In this document: one piece after another, positions 5,571 through 32,000 of the stretch
How the letters are laid out: each line of letters opens with the position of its first letter
Position numbering within the stretch: position 1 is the first letter of the stretch
NCBI GenBank assembly: GCA_001766815.1
Contig: LYOS01000003.1
Location: forward strand, 55,254-87,253
Source of the DNA: Candidatus Syntropharchaeum caldarium
GTDB taxonomy: Archaea; Halobacteriota; Syntropharchaeia; Syntropharchaeales; Syntropharchaeaceae
Direction: 5' to 3'
DNA length: 32,000 nt
Notes under the pieces: generated by a model
The model's input: the letters and a program-made list of their open reading frames with translations, nothing else
What the model was told of the DNA's origin: nothing
Databases searched by the model: none
Position numbers and translations under genes: made by a program

Positions 5571-5972
5571 ACATGCCTCCTTTGATTCACAACAGTAATA
5601 AATACACTCGATCCGAAATAAATTGTCTTTCTTACCATATTTTTTACCACCTCATGGGATACCAGGTGGTGAATTGATAAGAGTGGGGAGGTTTTGCGGG
5701 TTTTTGGTGCATCGGAATGCATAAGGTTTCCTCCATCACAACTCTCACTTTTCACCACTGCGCCTGTCCCTTTTTATAAAAATTGGTTTGTTTTAAATCT
5801 AATCTTTTTAACACACCTATCATGGTTATCGTATATAAACTTTACTATTTTGTTTAAAAAAGTAAAATAAACTTGTGTTATTCGCAGGTAAATGCTGGAA
5901 GGCGAATATTTAAATACAAAAGTCTTTGTTCTAATTCCAGATAACTGTATGTGAACTTGGGCGAGGAGAGCA

Positions 5973-13394: not shown

Positions 13395-13409
13395 ACTATT
13401 TATTACTTA
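13395..13409. promoter_or_regulatory. Shared A/T-rich TATA region for divergent ppsA and polX
   Basis: The sequence actatttattactta lies about 25-30 nt from both the ppsA ATG (13365) and the polX ATG (13430). Confidence 0.35.
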
Positions 13410-26696: not shown

Positions 26697-27698
26697 ATGG
26701 ATATCGAGCCAATCATGGTTGTAGTGGTGCTGGTGGCATCCTTTGCACTGACGATGGTGGTAACACCTCGACTGATACGAAAACTGAGAGATAAGGGAGA
26801 GGTGGTCAACGATTACTACAAGCTTGATTCGCGGGAGGTACCAACCAAGGGGGGCATTCTTATTCTTGGTGTTGTCTTCCTGATGCTTGCTCTTCTAACC
26901 ATCATCGAACACCTCTCAACTCCTGACTTCAACATACAGGTCACAGGTGTGGACTGGGCGATCCTGATTGTTGCAGGTCTTTTTGGGGCATTCGGTCTGG
27001 TTGATGATCTTGTGGATGTTGGAAGACCGCTGAAAATAATCTTTCTCTACTTCTTCTCCTTTCGCCTGATCTTTGAGATAGGATCAACGATGGTGACACT
27101 TCCCCTGATCGGAAGCTTTGACGCTGGCATTTTTTACCTCTTCCTGATCATTCCATTGTATGTTTTAGTGACAGCAAACCTCACAAACATGCACTCAGGG
27201 TTCAATGGTCTGGCATCCGGGGTCTCATTAATTATAATCACAACGCTGCTTCTCAAATTCATTGTCTCAGGACATGACGGTGTTCTGACACTTGGCTGTA
27301 TGTCTGGTGCTATTCTTGGATTTTTATGGTATAACAGTTATCCAGCCAGAATATTCTGGGGAAACATAGGTTCTCTATCCATAGGTGCTGCCATTGGTGC
27401 AGCAATCGTTGTATCAGGATTTCTGGTCGCAGGGTTTATCATGTTGATACCACATACGATCAACTTCCTGATGTACTTTTACTGGAGGGTAATGCACAAA
27501 CTTCACCCGGAGGATAAGCGATGGAAACTTGTTAAGTTCGGAAAGGTTCGGGAAGATGGAACACTTGAGGTTCCAAATCCCCTGACATTGAAATGGGTGC
27601 TCCCATATTACTTCAATGTGACCGAGAAGCAGACAGTACTGGCGATGTATGCGCTGACGATGATCTGCTGTGCAGTGGCATTCTTTGTGCCGTATTAG
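26697..27698 (+). CDS. Glycosyltransferase family 4 polyprenyl-phosphate HexNAc-1-phosphate transferase (AglH/WecA/MraY-like)
   Basis: Polytopic membrane ORF with GLVDDLVDVG and NMHSGFNGLASG motifs. I favour the ATG at 26697 (GAGGGG upstream) over the ORF-track TTG at 26679. Its stop overlaps the stop of the convergent gene. Confidence 0.8.
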   Translation: MDIEPIMVVVVLVASFALTMVVTPRLIRKLRDKGEVVNDYYKLDSREVPTKGGILILGVVFLMLALLTIIEHLSTPDFNIQVTGVDWAILIVAGLFGAFGLVDDLVDVGRPLKIIFLYFFSFRLIFEIGSTMVTLPLIGSFDAGIFYLFLIIPLYVLVTANLTNMHSGFNGLASGVSLIIITTLLLKFIVSGHDGVLTLGCMSGAILGFLWYNSYPARIFWGNIGSLSIGAAIGAAIVVSGFLVAGFIMLIPHTINFLMYFYWRVMHKLHPEDKRWKLVKFGKVREDGTLEVPNPLTLKWVLPYYFNVTEKQTVLAMYALTMICCAVAFFVPY

Positions 27699-29008
27699 CT
27701 CTGTTCTCTGAGCGATACTTTCACAAGCCCTGATGCGATATCACGTAACGCCTCTGAACGTCGATATTCATTATTTATGCGCCCTGCGACCTCCAGAGCT
27801 TCTTCAAACTTTCTGGCTTTAGCAAGCTCAGAGACGATCTCACACAAAACCTCTGAGTGTAGATTTTCATCATCGATACGCCCTGCGACCTCCAGAGCTT
27901 CTTCAAACTTTCTGGCTTTAGCAAACTTGAAAGCGATCTTACGCAAAGCCCATAACCGCCGTGAACGATCGTCTATACTCTCTGCAACCTCCAGCGATTC
28001 TTCAAGGATCTCTTTGTATGGTTCACCTGCTTCAGCAAACCTCAATGCAGTCTTACGTAAACACACTGCCCGTCGAAATCTGTCAGTTATACATCTTGTA
28101 TCTGCCAGTGATTCTTCAAGGATTTCTTTATACGGTTTTCCGGCTCTGGCGAGTCCTACTGCAATATCCCGTAGCGGCCATGAACGCATATATGTATCAT
28201 CTATACATTTTGCAACCCCCAGGGCTTCTTCGAACTCTCCAGCTTCAACAAGCCCAAGTGCAAGCTCGCGCATCGCCCATAGACGTCGGGATTTATTACT
28301 TATAGACCGTATAGCTTCCAGTTCTTCTTCAAAAACCTCTTTATATGGTTTGCCTGCCCCTGCAAGTCCTACCACAATCTTACGTAAAGCCCATGCACGC
28401 TGAGAGGCATCCTTTATACCCCTTGAAACCTCGAGCGCCTCGTCAAATTCCCCCACTCCCGTAAGTCCCACTGCAAGCTCGCGCAGAGTTTCAAAACGCT
28501 GCAGATCATCATTTATATATCCTGCAACTCTCAGTGCTTCATCAAGGATCTCTCGATAGGGTTCACCTGCTTCAGCGAGCCCCACCACGATCTCCTGCAG
28601 AGTTTCAAAACGCCTGAGTTTATTGCCCATATTTTGTGAAATCTCAAGTGCTTCATCAAGGATCTCCCTGTATGGTTTCCCGGCTTCAGCGAGCCCCACC
28701 ACGATCTCACATAAAGCCGATGAACGCTGCGATCTATCACCTATACTGCGTGCAATCTCAAGTGTTTCATCCAGGATCTTCCTGTATGGTTTCCCGGCTT
28801 CAGCAAGCCCCACCACAACCTTGCGCAAAGCCGATGAACGCAGATATTTATCACCTATATGACCTGAAACCTCAAGTGCATCCTCAAACTTACCTGCGTT
28901 AGCAAGCTCTGATACGATCTCATAGAGAGCTTCAAAACGTATATATTTATCATTTATATTTTTTACAATATCCAGGGCTTTTTTGGGACCGTCTATGCCA
29001 TTTCTCAT
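27695..29008 (-). CDS. Alpha-solenoid repeat protein B (12 units of a 33/38-aa helical repeat), function unknown
   Basis: 437-aa ORF made almost entirely of units such as LEIARSIGDRSQRSSALCEIVVGLAEAGKPYREILDEA and LEVSRGIKDASQRAWALRKIVVGLAGAG. Purine-rich codon usage supports coding on the minus strand. A TATA-like GATATTTATTGAC (minus strand, about 29045-29057) lies upstream. Confidence 0.8.
   Translation of the reverse strand: MRNGIDGPKKALDIVKNINDKYIRFEALYEIVSELANAGKFEDALEVSGHIGDKYLRSSALRKVVVGLAEAGKPYRKILDETLEIARSIGDRSQRSSALCEIVVGLAEAGKPYREILDEALEISQNMGNKLRRFETLQEIVVGLAEAGEPYREILDEALRVAGYINDDLQRFETLRELAVGLTGVGEFDEALEVSRGIKDASQRAWALRKIVVGLAGAGKPYKEVFEEELEAIRSISNKSRRLWAMRELALGLVEAGEFEEALGVAKCIDDTYMRSWPLRDIAVGLARAGKPYKEILEESLADTRCITDRFRRAVCLRKTALRFAEAGEPYKEILEESLEVAESIDDRSRRLWALRKIAFKFAKARKFEEALEVAGRIDDENLHSEVLCEIVSELAKARKFEEALEVAGRINNEYRRSEALRDIASGLVKVSLREQS
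27780..27924. repeat. Exact 46-bp intragenic duplication, 99-bp register
   Basis: The string cgccctgcgacctccagagcttcttcaaactttctggctttagcaa occurs at 27780-27825 and again at 27879-27924. The offset is 33 codons, and each copy encodes KARKFEEALEVAGRI. Confidence 0.9.
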
Positions 29009-29082
29009 CCTTCTTCAACTCACACGCCATTCTGCACCAGTCAATAAATATCTTCTTCCTCTTTTCAAAGCCGATTGATATC

Positions 29083-29823
29083 TTACTCCACTCTTGCAGC
29101 TATTACTGTAATGTTGTCATAACTTATCGGCTTCACAACCTCAATCAGATGCTTACAGATATTCTCGGCCCCAGAATTTAAAACAAGTTCTTTTATCTGC
29201 TCCTCCCTGAGTACATCACTGATACCATCAGAACAGAGGATGAGTATATCCTTATCTCCCAGATCTATATTGAAGAGATCGGGTTTTACACCTCTCATCC
29301 CAATTACTTTCGTTACAATATTCTTATGGGGATGTCCAAATGCCTTATCCTCCCTGAGCATTCCTGCATCAATGAGCTCCTGAACAAATGAGTGATCTTT
29401 TGTCACTCGCACAATCTCATCCCCAACAAGATATGCTCTGCTATCACCAACATTTGCCACAGCACCTCTACCATTATCATCAAGAAGTGCTGCCACAAGT
29501 GTTGTGCTCAGGTCACACCCTTCAGGGAACGACTTTGATCGATCGCAGACAGCATCGTTTGCCTTCCTGAAACCATCTTTAAGCAGTTCCTTCAGTGATT
29601 CCCTTGAAACAGACTTCAAGCTGGATAAGCCCGTTCTCACGGCATCGAGAAGTGTCATAACAGCAAGCTCACTTGCAATCTCTCCCGCATCGCAGCTCCA
29701 CACACCGTCTGCTACTGCTAAAAGATGATAAATTCCAGATTTATGCTCAAGTTTAAGTATACTGTAAAAATCCTCGTTATCGGGTCTACCACCCACATCT
29801 GTTGCACCGCAGCATCTCAGCAA
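29083..29823 (-). CDS. PP2C (PPM) family Ser/Thr protein phosphatase
   Basis: 246-aa ORF with ATDVGGRPDNEDF, LAVADG, VANVGDSRAYLV, VTKDHSFVQELIDAGML, ILCSDGISD and a terminal DNITVIAARVE. It uses a TTG start 12 nt after the upstream stop, preceded by GAGGTGAT. Confidence 0.85.
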   Translation of the reverse strand: MLRCCGATDVGGRPDNEDFYSILKLEHKSGIYHLLAVADGVWSCDAGEIASELAVMTLLDAVRTGLSSLKSVSRESLKELLKDGFRKANDAVCDRSKSFPEGCDLSTTLVAALLDDNGRGAVANVGDSRAYLVGDEIVRVTKDHSFVQELIDAGMLREDKAFGHPHKNIVTKVIGMRGVKPDLFNIDLGDKDILILCSDGISDVLREEQIKELVLNSGAENICKHLIEVVKPISYDNITVIAARVE

Positions 29824-29835
29824 AATTTATCACCT

Positions 29836-31275
29836 CTACCCCATCTTATCTCTAAGCGATACTTTCACAAGCCCTGATGCAATCTCACGTAACGCCTCTG
29901 AACGTCGATATTCATTATCTAAACGCTCCGTAAGCTTTAAAGCCTCTTCAAATTTCCTGTTTTTCACAAGTCCTGCTATGATCTCGCATAAGACTATGGA
30001 ACAGCGGGATTGATCATCCATGTGCTCTAAAACTTCGAGCGCATCCTCAAACTTACCCGCTTTAGCGAGCTTGGAAGCAATTCTATGCAAAGCCCATGAA
30101 CGCCTCGTCTCATCATCTATACATTCTGCAAACCCAAGAGCTTCTTCAAGTATATCTCTGTATGGTTCACCGGCACCGGTAAGTTCCAGTGCAATCCCAC
30201 ATAACGCCGATGAGCGCTGCGATCTATCACTTATACATCGTGCAACCTCGAGCGCTTCATCAAAAATCTCTTTAGATGGTTCACCTGCCCTGGCAAGCCC
30301 TGATGCAGTATTACGTAATGCCCAGGAACGCCGAAGCTCATCCTTTATACTCCTTGTAGCCTCCAGTGCTTCTTCAAGTATATCTCTGTATGGTTTGCCT
30401 GCCTCAGCAAGCCCTGATGCGATCACACGCAGGGGCAATGAGCGCAGATATTTGGTATTTATACTCCGTGCAACCTCGAGTGCCTCATCAAATTCTCCAG
30501 CTTCAGCAAGCCCCACCACAACCTTGCGCAAGGCCCATGAAGAGTGGAAATCATCACATATACGTCCTGATATCTCAAGTGCCTCATCAAATTCTCCAGC
30601 TTCAGCAAGCCCCACCACAACCTTGCGCAAGGCCCACGAACGCTGGTATCTATCTTCTATCTGCTCTGCAAACTCAAGTGCCTCATCAAGTACCTCTTTG
30701 TACGGTTTCCCGGCTTCGGCAAGCCTCAGTGCGATCTCACGCAGTGCTTCCGCAACTCGGTGTCCATCACCTATACGCCGTGCAACCTCAAGCGCCTCAT
30801 CAAATTCTCCAGCTTCAGCAAGCCCAGCTGCAATCTTACTCATAGCCTCCAGATGCTGATATCTATCCTTTATCCTCTCTGCAACATCGAGCACTTCTTC
30901 AAGTACCTCTTTGTACGGTTTGCCGGCTTTGGCGAGCCCCACTGCAATCTTGAGCAAGGCTTCAAGACGCCCAAACTCATTGCTTATACTCCGTGAAATC
31001 TCAAGCGCCTCATCAAGTATCTCTCGATAGGGTTTCCCGGCTTCGGCAAGCCTCAGTGCGATCTCACGCAGTGCTTCCATTCGCTGATATTTATTTACTA
31101 TGCGCCCTGATATCTCAAGCGCCTCATCAAACTCTCCAGCTTCAGCGAGCCCCACTGCAATCTCACGCAGTGCTTCCATTCGCTGATATTTATCGGTTAT
31201 ACGATCTGCAACCCCCAGAGCTTCTTCAAGATAACGCCCCACAGCACCCATATTCTTCTCAAGCAACCACACCAC
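29836..31275 (-). CDS. Alpha-solenoid repeat protein A (13 units of the same 33/38-aa helical repeat), function unknown
   Basis: 479-aa ORF (GTG at 31275; the ATG at 31251 is an alternative start). Example units are LEFAEQIEDRYQRSWALRKVVVGLAEAGEFDEA and LEVARSINTKYLRSLPLRVIASGLAEAGKPYRDILEEA. The C-terminal unit is nearly identical to that of protein B. Confidence 0.8.
   Translation of the reverse strand: MVWLLEKNMGAVGRYLEEALGVADRITDKYQRMEALREIAVGLAEAGEFDEALEISGRIVNKYQRMEALREIALRLAEAGKPYREILDEALEISRSISNEFGRLEALLKIAVGLAKAGKPYKEVLEEVLDVAERIKDRYQHLEAMSKIAAGLAEAGEFDEALEVARRIGDGHRVAEALREIALRLAEAGKPYKEVLDEALEFAEQIEDRYQRSWALRKVVVGLAEAGEFDEALEISGRICDDFHSSWALRKVVVGLAEAGEFDEALEVARSINTKYLRSLPLRVIASGLAEAGKPYRDILEEALEATRSIKDELRRSWALRNTASGLARAGEPSKEIFDEALEVARCISDRSQRSSALCGIALELTGAGEPYRDILEEALGFAECIDDETRRSWALHRIASKLAKAGKFEDALEVLEHMDDQSRCSIVLCEIIAGLVKNRKFEEALKLTERLDNEYRRSEALREIASGLVKVSLRDKMG
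30479..30636. repeat. Exact 59-bp intragenic duplication, 99-bp register
   Basis: The string agtgcctcatcaaattctccagcttcagcaagccccaccacaaccttgcgcaaggccca occurs at 30479-30537 and at 30578-30636. Each copy encodes WALRKVVVGLAEAGEFDEAL. Confidence 0.9.
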
Positions 31276-31335
31276 CCACTTTTTTGGTGATCTTACTTCA
31301 CCCTGTTAATACGTACTGATTATTCAAGCTCAATT

Positions 31336-31343
31336 GATAAATA
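31336..31343 (-). promoter_or_regulatory. TATA-like box upstream of repeat protein A
   Basis: The minus strand reads GGTATTTATCAATTG, 60-90 nt upstream of the candidate start codons. Confidence 0.3.
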
Positions 31344-31457
31344 CCTTCGCCTTCAACCGATCAACGATATTTGTTGCATCCCTGCTCGTTCTAATTTTGA
31401 AAATATCCCCTAAAGCATCACTTCACCATCAGGGTAAGAACACAACTATACCCACCG

Positions 31458-31463
31458 AAAAAA
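31458..31463 (-). terminator. Oligo-T tract (minus strand) after the small ORFs
   Basis: The minus strand reads CATTTTTTCGG, 8 nt after the TAG at 31471-31473. This separates the upstream unit from the repeat/PP2C cassette. Confidence 0.3.
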
Positions 31464-31580
31464 TGATCTTCTACTCTTCCCTCAACCTGTCCCCCACAGA
31501 TCGGATCTGATTCGCTGATTCATTCAGTCTTCCGCGCATCTTCATCAGTTCTCTACCAGCATCCCTCTCCTCTGATCCCT

Positions 31581-31724
31581 CTATCCGCGCAAGTTTTGTG
31601 TCCCCATCATTTTATCCCAGATCGCCCTTCCGCTTCCCCAATAAAGTTCTGTAGCCATATCCTCACAACAACCAAGCTCATCATACCTCGCTGGATCTCC
31701 TACATGATTCAGAAGCGGTATCAT
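31581..31724 (-). CDS. Small ORF (47 aa), possibly the 5' part of an ~84-aa frame-interrupted gene
   Basis: It is not in the ORF track. It translates as MIPLLNHVGDPARYDELGCCEDMATELYWGSGRAIWDKMMGTQNLRG and starts 7 nt after the upstream stop, preceded by GAGGTGAT. The -1 frame continues to 31471 (see finding). Confidence 0.3.
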   Translation of the reverse strand: MIPLLNHVGDPARYDELGCCEDMATELYWGSGRAIWDKMMGTQNLRG

Positions 31725-31730
31725 ATCACC

Positions 31731-32000
31731 TCATGTGGTTGTTCCAGGCATCAGGTGCTCTTCGGTCAGGAAAGTCCAGTAGCCATACCCTGGCGTCATA
31801 TCTATGAACTCAGAGATTCCTGGAGCGGGTGGATAGCTGTACACGAGCCTGAGATCTGTAGATGCCATTCCCTGGTACTCGACCGTTGATAGCATCGTTG
31901 CCTTATCACTGAGTCCTGTGGCAAGGACAAACTCCTCAACAGTCCAGCCCTCATCTGTGATATGACCGATCATGTTCCAGCCAACATACAGCTCCTGTAC
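31731..32000 (-). CDS. C-terminal end of a hypothetical protein (5' part outside the window)
   Basis: The frame is open to the window edge (VQELYVGWNMIGHITDEGW...PGYGYWTFLTEEHLMPGTTT*). The beta-rich GWNxIG / GYGYW motifs suggest an extracellular beta-sandwich domain, but I recognise no family. Confidence 0.5.
   Translation of the reverse strand, partial: VQELYVGWNMIGHITDEGWTVEEFVLATGLSDKATMLSTVEYQGMASTDLRLVYSYPPAPGISEFIDMTPGYGYWTFLTEEHLMPGTTT

Follow-up and report, generated by a model that had tools for sequence, protein, structure and literature searches.

Three consecutive minus-strand genes in a 32,000-nucleotide stretch of archaeal DNA (the window) place a PP2C phosphatase between two paralogous repeat proteins, A and B. 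The arrangement raises the question of what the repeat arrays are and whether they have anything to do with the phosphatase.

Layout and conservation of the cassette

The coordinates and lengths of the three open reading frames, and the TTG start of the phosphatase gene, are exactly those given in the first-pass annotation of this DNA. The features of the locus, with the evidence for each, are:

31336..31343, minus strand: candidate archaeal TATA element TATTTATC before gene A (pattern search and sequence reading)
29836..31275, minus strand: gene A, predicted TPR-clan repeat protein of 13 units (ORF, units, Pfam, AF2, Foldseek, omega)
29824..29838, minus strand: stop codon TAG of A (29836-29838) and 12-nt spacer, with SD-like GAGGTGAT at 29829-29836 (sequence)
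29083..29823, minus strand: predicted PP2C/PPM Ser/Thr phosphatase, Stp1/PrpC-like, 246 aa, TTG start (Pfam, NCBIfam, alignment)
29009..29082, minus strand: PP2C-B spacer of 74 nt, with a TATTTATT box at 29043-29050 (sequence, pattern search, conservation)
27695..29008, minus strand: gene B, paralogue of A, 12 units, 437 aa (ORF, units, Pfam, AF2, Foldseek, omega)

The start of gene A is ambiguous among four in-frame codons, GTG at 31275 (479 aa), GTG at 31272, TTG at 31266 and ATG at 31251 (471 aa), and the TATTTATC box, a candidate promoter element of this gene, lies 61-85 nt upstream of these possible starts. The junction between A and the phosphatase gene reads as first annotated, with TAG, a 12-nt gap carrying a perfect SD sequence, GAGGTGAT, and TTG at 29823. 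The cassette recurs in one relative, represented by two metagenomes (L165 and L166), where PP2C is 78% identical, the end of A overlaps the start of PP2C (GTGA stop/start) and B begins 96 nt downstream; the translational linkage of A and PP2C claimed at first pass is therefore conserved, in another form. Comparison with the L165 orthologues gave an omega of 0.29 for A, 0.30 for PP2C and 0.37 for B; purifying selection acts on all three. The relative is close (dS 0.4-0.6), so that the shared gene order could be default inheritance and says little about function.

The 3′ end of gene B shares 4 nt with a convergent GT4 gene. B is probably transcribed from a promoter of its own, at a candidate TATA-like TATTTATTG/TATTTATT box; although the PP2C-B spacer of L165/L166 differs by a 21-nt indel, the TATTTATTG box and its flanks are fully conserved there. 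A, PP2C and B therefore do not necessarily form a single transcript, and of the earlier proposal of a three-gene unit, the grouping of PP2C with two paralogous solenoids stands, whereas a single transcript is not supported. An independent assembly from Logan (L001) is identical over window positions 28799-29914, and the longest exact DNA repeat within the arrays is 59 nt, which makes the arrays plausible as assembled.

The neighbours of the cassette are housekeeping genes with a GC content of ~0.43-0.50, like the rest of the window, and no mobile-element or island signature was found around the cassette within the window. As the first-pass annotation stated, the cassette has no kinase, STAS or NTPase partner; none is encoded elsewhere in the window either, which covers 27 kb on one side of the cassette, the other side lying beyond it.

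Repeat units, fold and relatives of the array proteins

Anchoring on the G-L-A-E-A-G motif identified 13 units in A (spaced by 33 or 38 aa) and 11 in B, where an extra N-terminal unit (residues 11-43) brings the total to 12. A unit HMM likewise found 13 domains in A (E = 3e-217) and 12 in B (E = 1e-205), upholding the unit counts and the 33/38-aa lengths reported from the first reading. A and B are 57% identical. Across the 25 units, the best conserved scaffold positions are L2 (25/25), L18 and L25 (23/25 each), I8 (22/25), A28 (21/25) and G29 (20/25), whereas many others are conserved at only 50-80%; the consensus proposed earlier holds, but its description as a nearly invariant scaffold was overstated.

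Variability is concentrated at unit positions 6, 7, 9, 11-13, 15 and 16, and the variable patch described at first pass is real and rich in Arg, Ser and aromatic residues: compared with the scaffold, it contains 15% vs. 4% Ser, 17% vs. 9% Arg and 13% vs. 1% Tyr, Trp or Phe. All 8 Trp residues occupy unit position 16. Some patches, such as RSQRSS and KSRRLW, contain R-x-x-S-like strings. Between units, identity is 22% in the patch and 55% in the scaffold; between orthologous units, it is 62% in the patch (omega = 0.34) and 72% in the scaffold (omega = 0.30), with no diversifying selection detected on the patch between orthologues. The patch thus differs among units but is kept between orthologues, indicating that the surface of each unit is maintained. 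Both proteins are acidic (pI 5.0 and 5.4), and neither contains a TM-like segment (maximum 19-aa hydropathy of 1.08 or less), in line with the earlier annotation.

The repeat had been considered unmappable onto known families, which proved incorrect. Gene A scores above the cut-off for TPR_30 (PF24603; 61.4 bits, Pfam cut-off 29.7), TPR_12 (PF13424; 56.7 bits, cut-off 30.1), PPR (PF01535; 40.1 bits, cut-off 25) and TIGR00756 (52.9 bits, cut-off 20), and gene B for TPR_30 (39.5 bits) and TPR_12 (38.8 bits), with 14.8 bits for the Pfam PPR profile. The AF2 model of A consists entirely of helical hairpins (pLDDT 88.8), the single-sequence model of B reaches a pLDDT of 92.3, and the Foldseek neighbours of both are TPR/PPR solenoids, LGN and Ton1535. 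By profile and predicted structure, A and B are stand-alone TPR-clan alpha/alpha solenoids. Ton1535 of Thermococcus onnurineus (PDB 3zpj), like A and B an archaeal stand-alone alpha-solenoid, is the top Foldseek match for B and the third for A (E = 2.6e-7; sequence-level match E = 1e-6), but at only 20% identity and TM-scores of 0.24-0.36; to our knowledge it has no assigned function, and it therefore offers no functional lead.

An exhaustive search with the array retrieved 6,602 cluster representatives at E <= 1e-3, of which 377 reached E <= 1e-30, and no relative exceeded 48% identity to A; the exact sequences of A and B are absent from a collection of 15 billion proteins. The relatives thus number in the thousands and are mostly arrays of STAND NTPases; in the closest large ones, the array forms the C-terminal module of an NB-ARC, NACHT or AAA_16 protein that also carries a TIR or trypsin effector domain. 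The TPR_30/TPR_12 arrays of STAND NTPases and kinases resemble A and B in the above-cut-off profile match, the two-helix unit, the predicted alpha/alpha solenoid and the core I-x-D-x-x-x-R-S-x-A-L-x-x-I-A-x-x-L-A-x-A-G-x-F-D-E-A-L. Unlike these arrays, A and B stand alone at 437-479 aa, lack NTPase, kinase, TIR and protease domains, and bracket a PP2C as a pair of paralogues. The genomic contexts of array relatives are mostly unrelated: stand-alone among housekeeping genes, directly after a NACHT NTPase (P0128), or fused to TIR, trypsin or NB-ARC. The first-pass annotation had proposed checking the unit against known profiles and the constancy of its PP2C neighbour; known families are matched, contexts are scattered, and adjacency to PP2C, which was observed in just the window organism and a single relative, is general neither for the repeat family nor for the PP2C clade. 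Most likely, the module is neither a new kind of repeat nor a new system.

The phosphatase and its kinase-linked relatives

The central protein matches PP2C_2 (48.8 bits) and PP2C (41.8 bits) in Pfam, aligns over its full length with S. aureus Stp1, tPphA and PstP, and conserves the catalytic and metal-binding residues R13, D18, D39-G40, D127, D199 and D236, from which we predict a catalytically competent Stp1/PrpC-type phosphatase. It shares with Stp1, PrpC and PstP, the partners of the Hanks kinases Stk1, PrkC and PknB, a single domain of ~245 aa, end-to-end alignment and the metal ligands. It differs from them in scoring 186.6 bits with the NCBIfam Stp1/IreP model, under the equivalog cut-off of 230, in having a TPR array as its upstream coupled gene, with no kinase in the window, and in reading DGVWSC where the clade consensus is DGLGGH (DGxGGH); the replacement of G-G-H by W42-S43-C44, beside the metal-binding D39-G40, could alter activity. 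The sequence is 100% identical to a protein of Ca. Syntrophoarchaeum caldarius, a butane-oxidising archaeon. The earlier remark that PPM phosphatases are sparse in archaea holds in relative terms, archaeal proteins contributing 439 of the 57,520 PF13672 entries (PMC12088040), but many archaeal relatives were found in our search.

Among PP2C orthologues at 47-57% identity, the five contexts examined all have an adjacent Hanks kinase, which in four of them lies directly upstream and is coupled; these orthologues have no A/B-type array beside them. The repeat itself is found on kinases: the Hanks kinases P0125 and P0143 of Archaeoglobaceae have arrays of the A/B-type unit at the N-terminus (~240 aa, 41-43% identical to A), likewise with short and long forms and in Ser/Thr phospho-signalling clusters. 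Their short unit is 33 aa and their long unit 40 aa, vs. 38 aa in A and B, and their arrays are covalently fused to a kinase, whereas A and B lie beside a phosphatase; no PP2C was found in the P0125 and P0143 loci. The metagenome locus L090 encodes a PEGA+TPR protein containing A/B-type units in a cluster with a kinase-PP2C pair, in which an 812-aa kinase is stop/start-coupled to PP2C. The Archaeoglobaceae TPR-kinase clusters and ANME-like kinase-PP2C clusters have homologous Vps4-like AAA ATPases and ~190-207-aa proteins in common, and are thus one cluster type. Of the accessory domains fused to bacterial PP2Cs, TPR is also one of the eight most common (PMC12088040), and Ser/Thr kinases bearing TPR have been described in bacteria and Sulfolobus (PMC1262709).

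Possible roles of the arrays

We favour, with a probability of about one half, a lineage-specific Syntrophoarchaeum form of an ordinary Ser/Thr phospho-signalling module in which A and B serve as scaffold or adaptor subunits. The first-pass hypothesis of phospho-signalling with scaffold solenoids is, on this view of the locus, the best-supported reading, given the repeat on Archaeoglobaceae kinases and in the L090 kinase-PP2C cluster; the scaffold role, physical interaction of A and B with PP2C, and the transcription units are inferred. A and B could instead be general TPR scaffolds, such as assembly- or chaperone-type adaptors, that arose by duplication around or beside a lone PP2C in the Syntrophoarchaeum lineage, so that adjacency means nothing functionally. 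The many unrelated contexts of array relatives, a PP2C clade generally without array neighbours, the sole conserved instance in a close relative and the apparent promoter of B all fit this reading; but A and PP2C are coupled in both organisms, and by different means (12-nt gap with perfect SD, GTGA overlap), and the repeat type is independently tied to Hanks kinases and a kinase-PP2C cluster, and we consider it unlikely, if well worth weighing. That the arrays are substrates or phospho-regulated targets rather than adaptors, with Ser-rich R-x-x-S-like patches that a kinase from another locus would phosphorylate and PP2C would reset, seems to us decidedly improbable: the genes are adjacent and A is coupled to PP2C, but patch composition (the Ser and Arg enrichment over the scaffold) is the basis of the idea, the window holds no nearby kinase, and enrichment in Arg, Ser and aromatic residues is just as typical of protein-binding surfaces.

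Two further readings have little to recommend them. A conflict or defence module, an option raised at first pass, would have the TPR arrays sense invader proteins as in STAND/Avs-type systems, with PP2C as effector or regulator, and finds precedent in the NB-ARC, NACHT and AAA_16 relatives and in P0128. The cassette and its neighbours, however, include no NTPase or effector, PADLOC returned only two partial sub-20-bit matches (none for PP2C or B), the surroundings are housekeeping genes without an island signature, and selection on the patch between orthologues is purifying rather than diversifying, all of which leaves this option unsupported and very improbable. We give still less credence to a PPR-like reading in which each unit recognises one base of RNA or ssDNA through a code at the variable positions, even though A passes both PPR cut-offs, consensus-designed PPRs are the best PDB sequence matches (E = 1e-22 to 1e-16; shared core LIsGLgKAGrlEEALElfEeM), and the top Foldseek matches include designed PPR-RNA complexes (21-26% identity). 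The period is 33/38 rather than 35 aa, and the counterparts of PPR code positions 5 and 35 hold E/K and E/W (E-E in 8 units, W-K in 4) rather than N/T/S and D/N/S. TPR_30 and TPR_12 outscore PPR, for which B falls below the Pfam cut-off, the PPR matches cover only ~18-20 model residues, TM-scores against PPR structures are <=0.45, and, as a weak argument, both proteins are acidic.

In the favoured phospho-signalling module, the turn and the beginning of the long helix in each unit would expose an Arg/Ser/aromatic patch particular to that unit, and the patches together are proposed to form a long, non-uniform protein-binding ridge. A would be made together with the phosphatase through the conserved translational coupling, and B probably from its own promoter. 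The arrays would most likely have the phosphatase, its phosphoprotein substrates or both as binding partners and, as we propose, thereby set the targeting or activity of the phosphatase. Known parallels are the TPR of PP5, TPR-bearing Hanks kinases and bacterial PP2C-TPR fusions. The TPR of PP5, a eukaryotic enzyme of the PPP family, binds partners and regulates the enzyme (cited in PMC1262709); PP5 and the fusions likewise tie a TPR module to a Ser/Thr phosphatase, whereas A and B are separate, duplicated, archaeal polypeptides of 12-13 units vs. 3 in PP5, with an association read from their genes. Where related archaea couple this PP2C clade to a Hanks kinase, Syntrophoarchaeum has array protein A in the upstream coupled slot.

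Gene organization of the cassette and its phosphatase

ORF calling returned three minus-strand genes that match the first-pass annotation, whose account of the ORFs, their positions and the junction between the first two is accurate. These genes and two further features are the following.

Features of the cassette and its flank in the window
29836-31275, minus strand: gene A, a 479-aa repeat protein
29083-29823, minus strand: PP2C phosphatase gene
29043-29050, minus strand: TATTTATT box in the PP2C-B spacer sequence, candidate TATA element of B
27695-29008, minus strand: gene B, a 437-aa paralogue of A
31731-32000, minus strand: gene fragment, last 89 codons, C-terminus '...PGYGYWTFLTEEHLMPGTTT*'

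Gene A has four candidate in-frame starts, of which the ATG at 31251 would yield 471 aa. Its TAG stop is followed by a 12-nt gap containing GAGGTGAT and then by the TTG start of the PP2C gene, and the spacer between PP2C and B measures 74 nt. Upstream of A, within window positions 31276-32000, lies a 455-nt non-coding stretch with no Rfam match at gathering thresholds; Rfam searches at these thresholds and a tRNA scan found nothing relevant in general, and the gene fragment has no Pfam match.

The phosphatase has the same sequence as a protein ascribed to Candidatus Syntrophoarchaeum caldarius (100% identity). It matches the Pfam models PP2C_2 (48.8 bits, cut-off 24) and PP2C (41.8 bits, cut-off 20.3), and its alignment with S. 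aureus Stp1, tPphA and PstP spans the whole protein. With a score of 186.6 bits against the NCBIfam Stp1/IreP equivalog (cut-off 230), it is Stp1-like but not an equivalog. Among the catalytic positions, which comprise metal-binding Asp residues and the phosphate-binding Arg, the clade alignment shows no variation at D18, D39-G40, D127, D199 or D236 and at least 90% conservation at R13; the window protein has all six. A derived feature is the absence of the DGxGGH motif: DGLGGH of the clade reads DGVWSC, with W42-S43-C44 for G-G-H (29692-29700) directly after the metal-binding D39-G40. This change is common to P0002, the PP2C of a relative (78% identity), and to no other aligned orthologue; across the clade, conservation of G42 and G43 reaches at least 90%. 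A SpoIIE Pfam match (28.9 bits) reflects the shared PP2C fold only, and the window holds no adjacent STAS antagonist or GHKL anti-sigma kinase, as would be features of partner-switching PP2Cs (RsbU/SpoIIE). No kinase is encoded in the 32-kb window.

Repeat units, fold and family of A and B

Anchoring on the GLAEAG motif delimits 13 units in A and 11 in B, spaced by 33 or 38 aa only; an extra N-terminal unit raises B to 12, and an HMM built from the units reports 13 and 12 domains. The scaffold of the unit had been described as nearly invariant, which is true of L2; I8, L18, L25, A28 and G29 are conserved at 80-92%, and the remaining scaffold positions vary more than that description implies. 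Variability is focused on positions 6, 7, 9, 11-13, 15 and 16, a patch in which Ser, Arg and aromatic residues are over-represented and whose position 16 accounts for all eight Trp. The arrays are believable as assembled, because an independent assembly of the same organism (L001) is an exact copy of 28799-29914, the longest exact DNA repeat in the arrays is 59 nt, and adjacent units share 76-84% DNA identity. Within either protein of the window, A6 and A7 form the most alike pair of units (72%), and clear colinearity between A and B is confined to the last three units of each.

Although the first-pass annotation could not place the unit, it is a TPR-clan repeat from a very large family. Above-threshold matches were obtained for A to TPR_30 (PF24603; 61.4 bits, cut-off 29.7) and TPR_12 (PF13424; 56.7 bits, cut-off 30.1), and for B to the same models (39.5 and 38.8 bits, respectively). 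The canonical 34-residue TPR signature (W4-L7-G8-Y11-A20-F24-A27-P32) is not matched: the period is 33/38 aa, no conserved Pro ends helix B, A scores 20.1 bits against TPR_2 (cut-off 27), and TPR_1 is absent from its best 25 Pfam matches. By our own mapping, the small and large hydrophobic positions of the unit are analogous to those of the canonical TPR. AF2 models (pLDDT 88.8 for A and 92.3 for B) predict an alpha/alpha solenoid of tandem antiparallel helix pairs, in which long helices of 17 residues alternate with short ones of 8-13; in the 38-aa units, the five additional residues extend the predicted short helix from 8-9 to 12-13 residues. The Foldseek neighbours of these models are TPR/PPR solenoids, including designed PPRs (21-26% identity), LGN, OGT and archaeal Ton1535, with TM-scores of at most 0.45, low values being expected where superhelix geometry differs.

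An exhaustive HMMER search recovered 6,602 cluster representatives of the family at E <= 1e-3, of which 377 reach E <= 1e-30; identity to A never exceeds 48%. The top matches are mostly proteins of 1,000-4,500 aa, and seven that were sampled include AAA_16-TPR, TIR-NB-ARC-TPR, trypsin-TPR and NACHT-TPR architectures. Among smaller relatives, P0124 stands alone amid housekeeping genes, P0128 lies right after a NACHT NTPase and P0122 is surrounded by unknown genes; none of the three adjoins a PP2C. Given such varied architectures and neighbourhoods, the repeat family is a common building block across many contexts. Exact look-up of A (with two starts) and of B in a 15-billion protein collection found neither, and a word-indexed search with A gave no self match; the collection contains the PP2C and nothing at least 50% identical to A. 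The short-read assemblies L001, L165 and L166 (the latter two from the relative) end inside arrays, L001 at exact repeats of 32-34 nt. Array genes like A and B are probably under-represented in metagenome protein catalogues.

Comparison of paralogous units shows 22% identity in the patch vs. 55% in the scaffold, whereas orthologous units of the two species are 62% identical in the patch vs. 72% in the scaffold. The orthologous omega (dN/dS) is 0.34 for the patch and 0.30 for the scaffold (calculated on only about 240 codons aligned for a single species pair), and this contrast gives no sign of positive selection or rapid diversification of the patch; the dN/dS values between paralogous units (0.40 for the patch vs. 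0.30 for the scaffold) are descriptive only, dS being saturated at 1-2. Divergent between paralogous units and kept between orthologous ones, each patch is thus a maintained, unit-specific surface, not a fast-evolving one, and a fixed interaction surface fits the pattern better than an arms-race receptor.

Conservation, promoters and kinase-containing neighbourhoods

The cassette recurs in one relative, on two short metagenome contigs, where the gene upstream of P0002 ends like A ('...EALREIASGLARASLRNKIGQG*') and the downstream gene starts like B. Both organisms have A and PP2C tightly joined but by different means, the SD-bearing gap in the window and a GTGA overlap in the relative, and omega between the two is 0.29, 0.30 and 0.37 for A, PP2C and B, respectively. 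The relative's A (L165:2-427) is without exactly one 33-aa unit, A11 (window 30040-30138), the flanking units being colinear, so unit number differs between species. A metagenome search with the PP2C orthologue alignment had two close loci among the matches listed, and a genome-contig search with the PP2C yielded relatives at no more than 43% identity. When the unit HMM was run on about 170 fetched loci, nearly all of them PP2C loci, arrays were detected only in the window, L001, L165 and L166, and weakly in the metagenome locus L090. Adjacency of these arrays to a PP2C is lineage-specific: beyond the one relative, the cassette was not found in the fetched loci.

In the PP2C-B spacer, the TATTTATTG box and its flanks are identical between the window and the relative despite a 21-nt indel, and a similar box lies upstream of A (31336-31343, minus strand). 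From these sequences we infer two transcription units, A-PP2C and B. The motif TATTTATY has 12 sites in the window vs. 1.8 expected (for example, 13397-13404 on the plus strand, and 5597-5604, 29043-29050 and 31336-31343 on the minus strand). Four plus-strand sites within A and B are the antisense of repeated D-K-Y codons at 99-nt spacing; the remaining, intergenic sites may be archaeal TATA boxes. One site is only 7 nt ahead of the annotated PolX start (13412), a spacing that points either to a leaderless transcript or to another start for that gene.

Hanks kinases adjoin PP2C orthologues of 47-57% identity in five of five contexts (L002, L003, L085, L167 and L168), in four of them directly upstream and stop/start-coupled; these clusters also hold AAA ATPases, PQQ beta-propellers and proteins of about 197-207 aa. 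One orthologue of 51% identity follows a gene with matches to a class-I tRNA-synthetase domain (PF01406), a housekeeping context. A does not derive from the N-terminal helical region of the kinases linked to PP2C (hhalign probability <1%).

The A/B-type unit itself does occur in kinases. The Archaeoglobaceae Hanks kinases P0125 and P0143 carry N-terminal arrays of it, which share 41-43% identity with A across about 240 aa and contain short units of 33 aa as well as long ones of 40 aa. Their clusters encode further kinases together with a Vps4-like AAA ATPase and a pair of proteins of about 190 aa; the ATPase and this pair have homologues in the kinase-PP2C clusters of ANME-like archaea. One type of gene cluster recurs in ANME-like/Halobacteriota contigs and in Archaeoglobaceae: alongside a Vps4-like AAA ATPase, it encodes between one and three Hanks kinases and a set of paralogous helical proteins of about 190-207 aa, its ANME-like version additionally holding PP2C and PQQ beta-propeller proteins.

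Kinase-containing clusters in other contigs
L002:3298-11602: recurring kinase/AAA cluster
L003:715-15328: recurring kinase/AAA cluster
L168:1-14662: recurring kinase/AAA cluster
L176:5610-15994: recurring kinase/AAA cluster
L177:8001-17036: recurring kinase/AAA cluster
L090:2342-8588: metagenome cluster of an archaeal ATPase_2/STAND-like NTPase, a PEGA+TPR protein, a HEAT-repeat protein, a 209-aa unknown protein, an 812-aa Hanks kinase and a PP2C

A Vps4_C domain is recorded in the AAA ATPases of L176 and L177. One group of the 190-207-aa proteins scores 23.1 bits against Snf7, below the cut-off of 27.3, and the other has CdvB as its top PDB match (E = 0.07), so that likeness to ESCRT-III is only hinted at. 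In precomputed Pfam assignments, the AAA ATPases (567-575 aa) at L002:3902-5629 and L003:1340-3043 also have a DAC domain (PF02457, diadenylate cyclase), which would tie the cluster to c-di-AMP signalling; the closest counterpart in L168 is a 401-aa AAA protein homologous to both, with no DAC match recorded. At L090, the PEGA+TPR protein contains A/B-type units ('...MGSTYLRTWALCEVAKAYAKVGKIDEA...') in the same cluster as the 812-aa kinase, which is coupled to the PP2C; the latter appears broken by a stop or frameshift. In published surveys, TPR ranks with the most frequent accessory domains that bacterial PP2Cs carry (PMC12088040), and TPR-bearing Ser/Thr kinases are described from bacteria and Sulfolobus (PMC1262709).

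Proposed role of the cassette

We favor, at a probability of about 0.5, the reading in which A and B serve a Ser/Thr phosphatase module as its adaptor or scaffold subunits. Translational coupling would ensure that A is made stoichiometrically with the PP2C, and the Arg/Ser/aromatic ridge of the arrays would bind the phosphatase and/or its phosphoprotein targets. The phospho-signalling scaffold envisaged by the first-pass annotation is reasonable, and it has gained some indirect support from the unit in Hanks kinases and from the kinase-PP2C cluster of L090.

Because the two organisms are close (dS 0.4-0.6), the synteny they share says little by itself about a functional link. That A, B and PP2C are functionally unrelated neighbours is an explanation that we consider unlikely. 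That A and B are phospho-substrates strikes us as improbable. A defence module is very improbable: no STAND NTPase (NACHT/NB-ARC/AAA_16) or effector was detected in A, B, PP2C or their neighbours, PADLOC reported nothing significant, the surroundings consist of housekeeping genes, and the diversification expected of a sensor surface is not seen in the patch, whose omega is close to that of the scaffold.

We give hardly any credence to A and B being PPR-like nucleic-acid binders, even though PPR profiles match A and, in part, B: A scores 40.1 bits against PF01535 (cut-off 25) and 52.9 against TIGR00756 (cut-off 20), B scores 14.8, below the cut-off, and 22.5, above it, against the same models, and the top PDB sequence matches are consensus PPR designs (common core 'LIsGLgKAGrlEEALElfEeM'). 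These profile matches extend over no more than about 18-20 positions of the models, and the TPR models give higher scores. Neither the 35-residue PPR period nor the code residues at positions 5 (N/T/S) and 35 (D/N/S) are present; in the HMMER alignment to cPPR, the code positions correspond to unit positions 20 and 16, which hold E/K and E/W/S, respectively. With a period of 33/38 and E/K and E/W at the code positions, the PPR likeness is kinship inside the TPR clan and no evidence of PPR.

The scaffold reading can be extended, as a long shot, to a holoenzyme of PP2A-like design with a PPM catalytic subunit, in which two long solenoids with unit-specific Arg/Ser/Trp ridges, conserved between species, would choose the substrates. 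Such a holoenzyme would serve as phosphatase arm in an archaeal signalling system not yet described, in which Hanks kinases (some with an A/B-type array) are elsewhere combined with a Vps4-like AAA ATPase and with the paralogous 190-207-aa helical proteins, which are maybe ESCRT-III-like.

Neither the PP2C nor the array proteins fall outside known families, and nothing here demonstrates a new principle. To our knowledge, Ser/Thr phospho-signalling in archaea other than Sulfolobus has been little studied, and we know of nothing on regulation in alkane-oxidising Syntrophoarchaeum. If the scaffold reading is true, the cassette would offer a simple system of two or three proteins in which to study how separate repeat subunits confer specificity on a minimal PP2C, and an entry to the conserved kinase/PP2C/Vps4-like AAA cluster of ANME-like archaea and Archaeoglobaceae.
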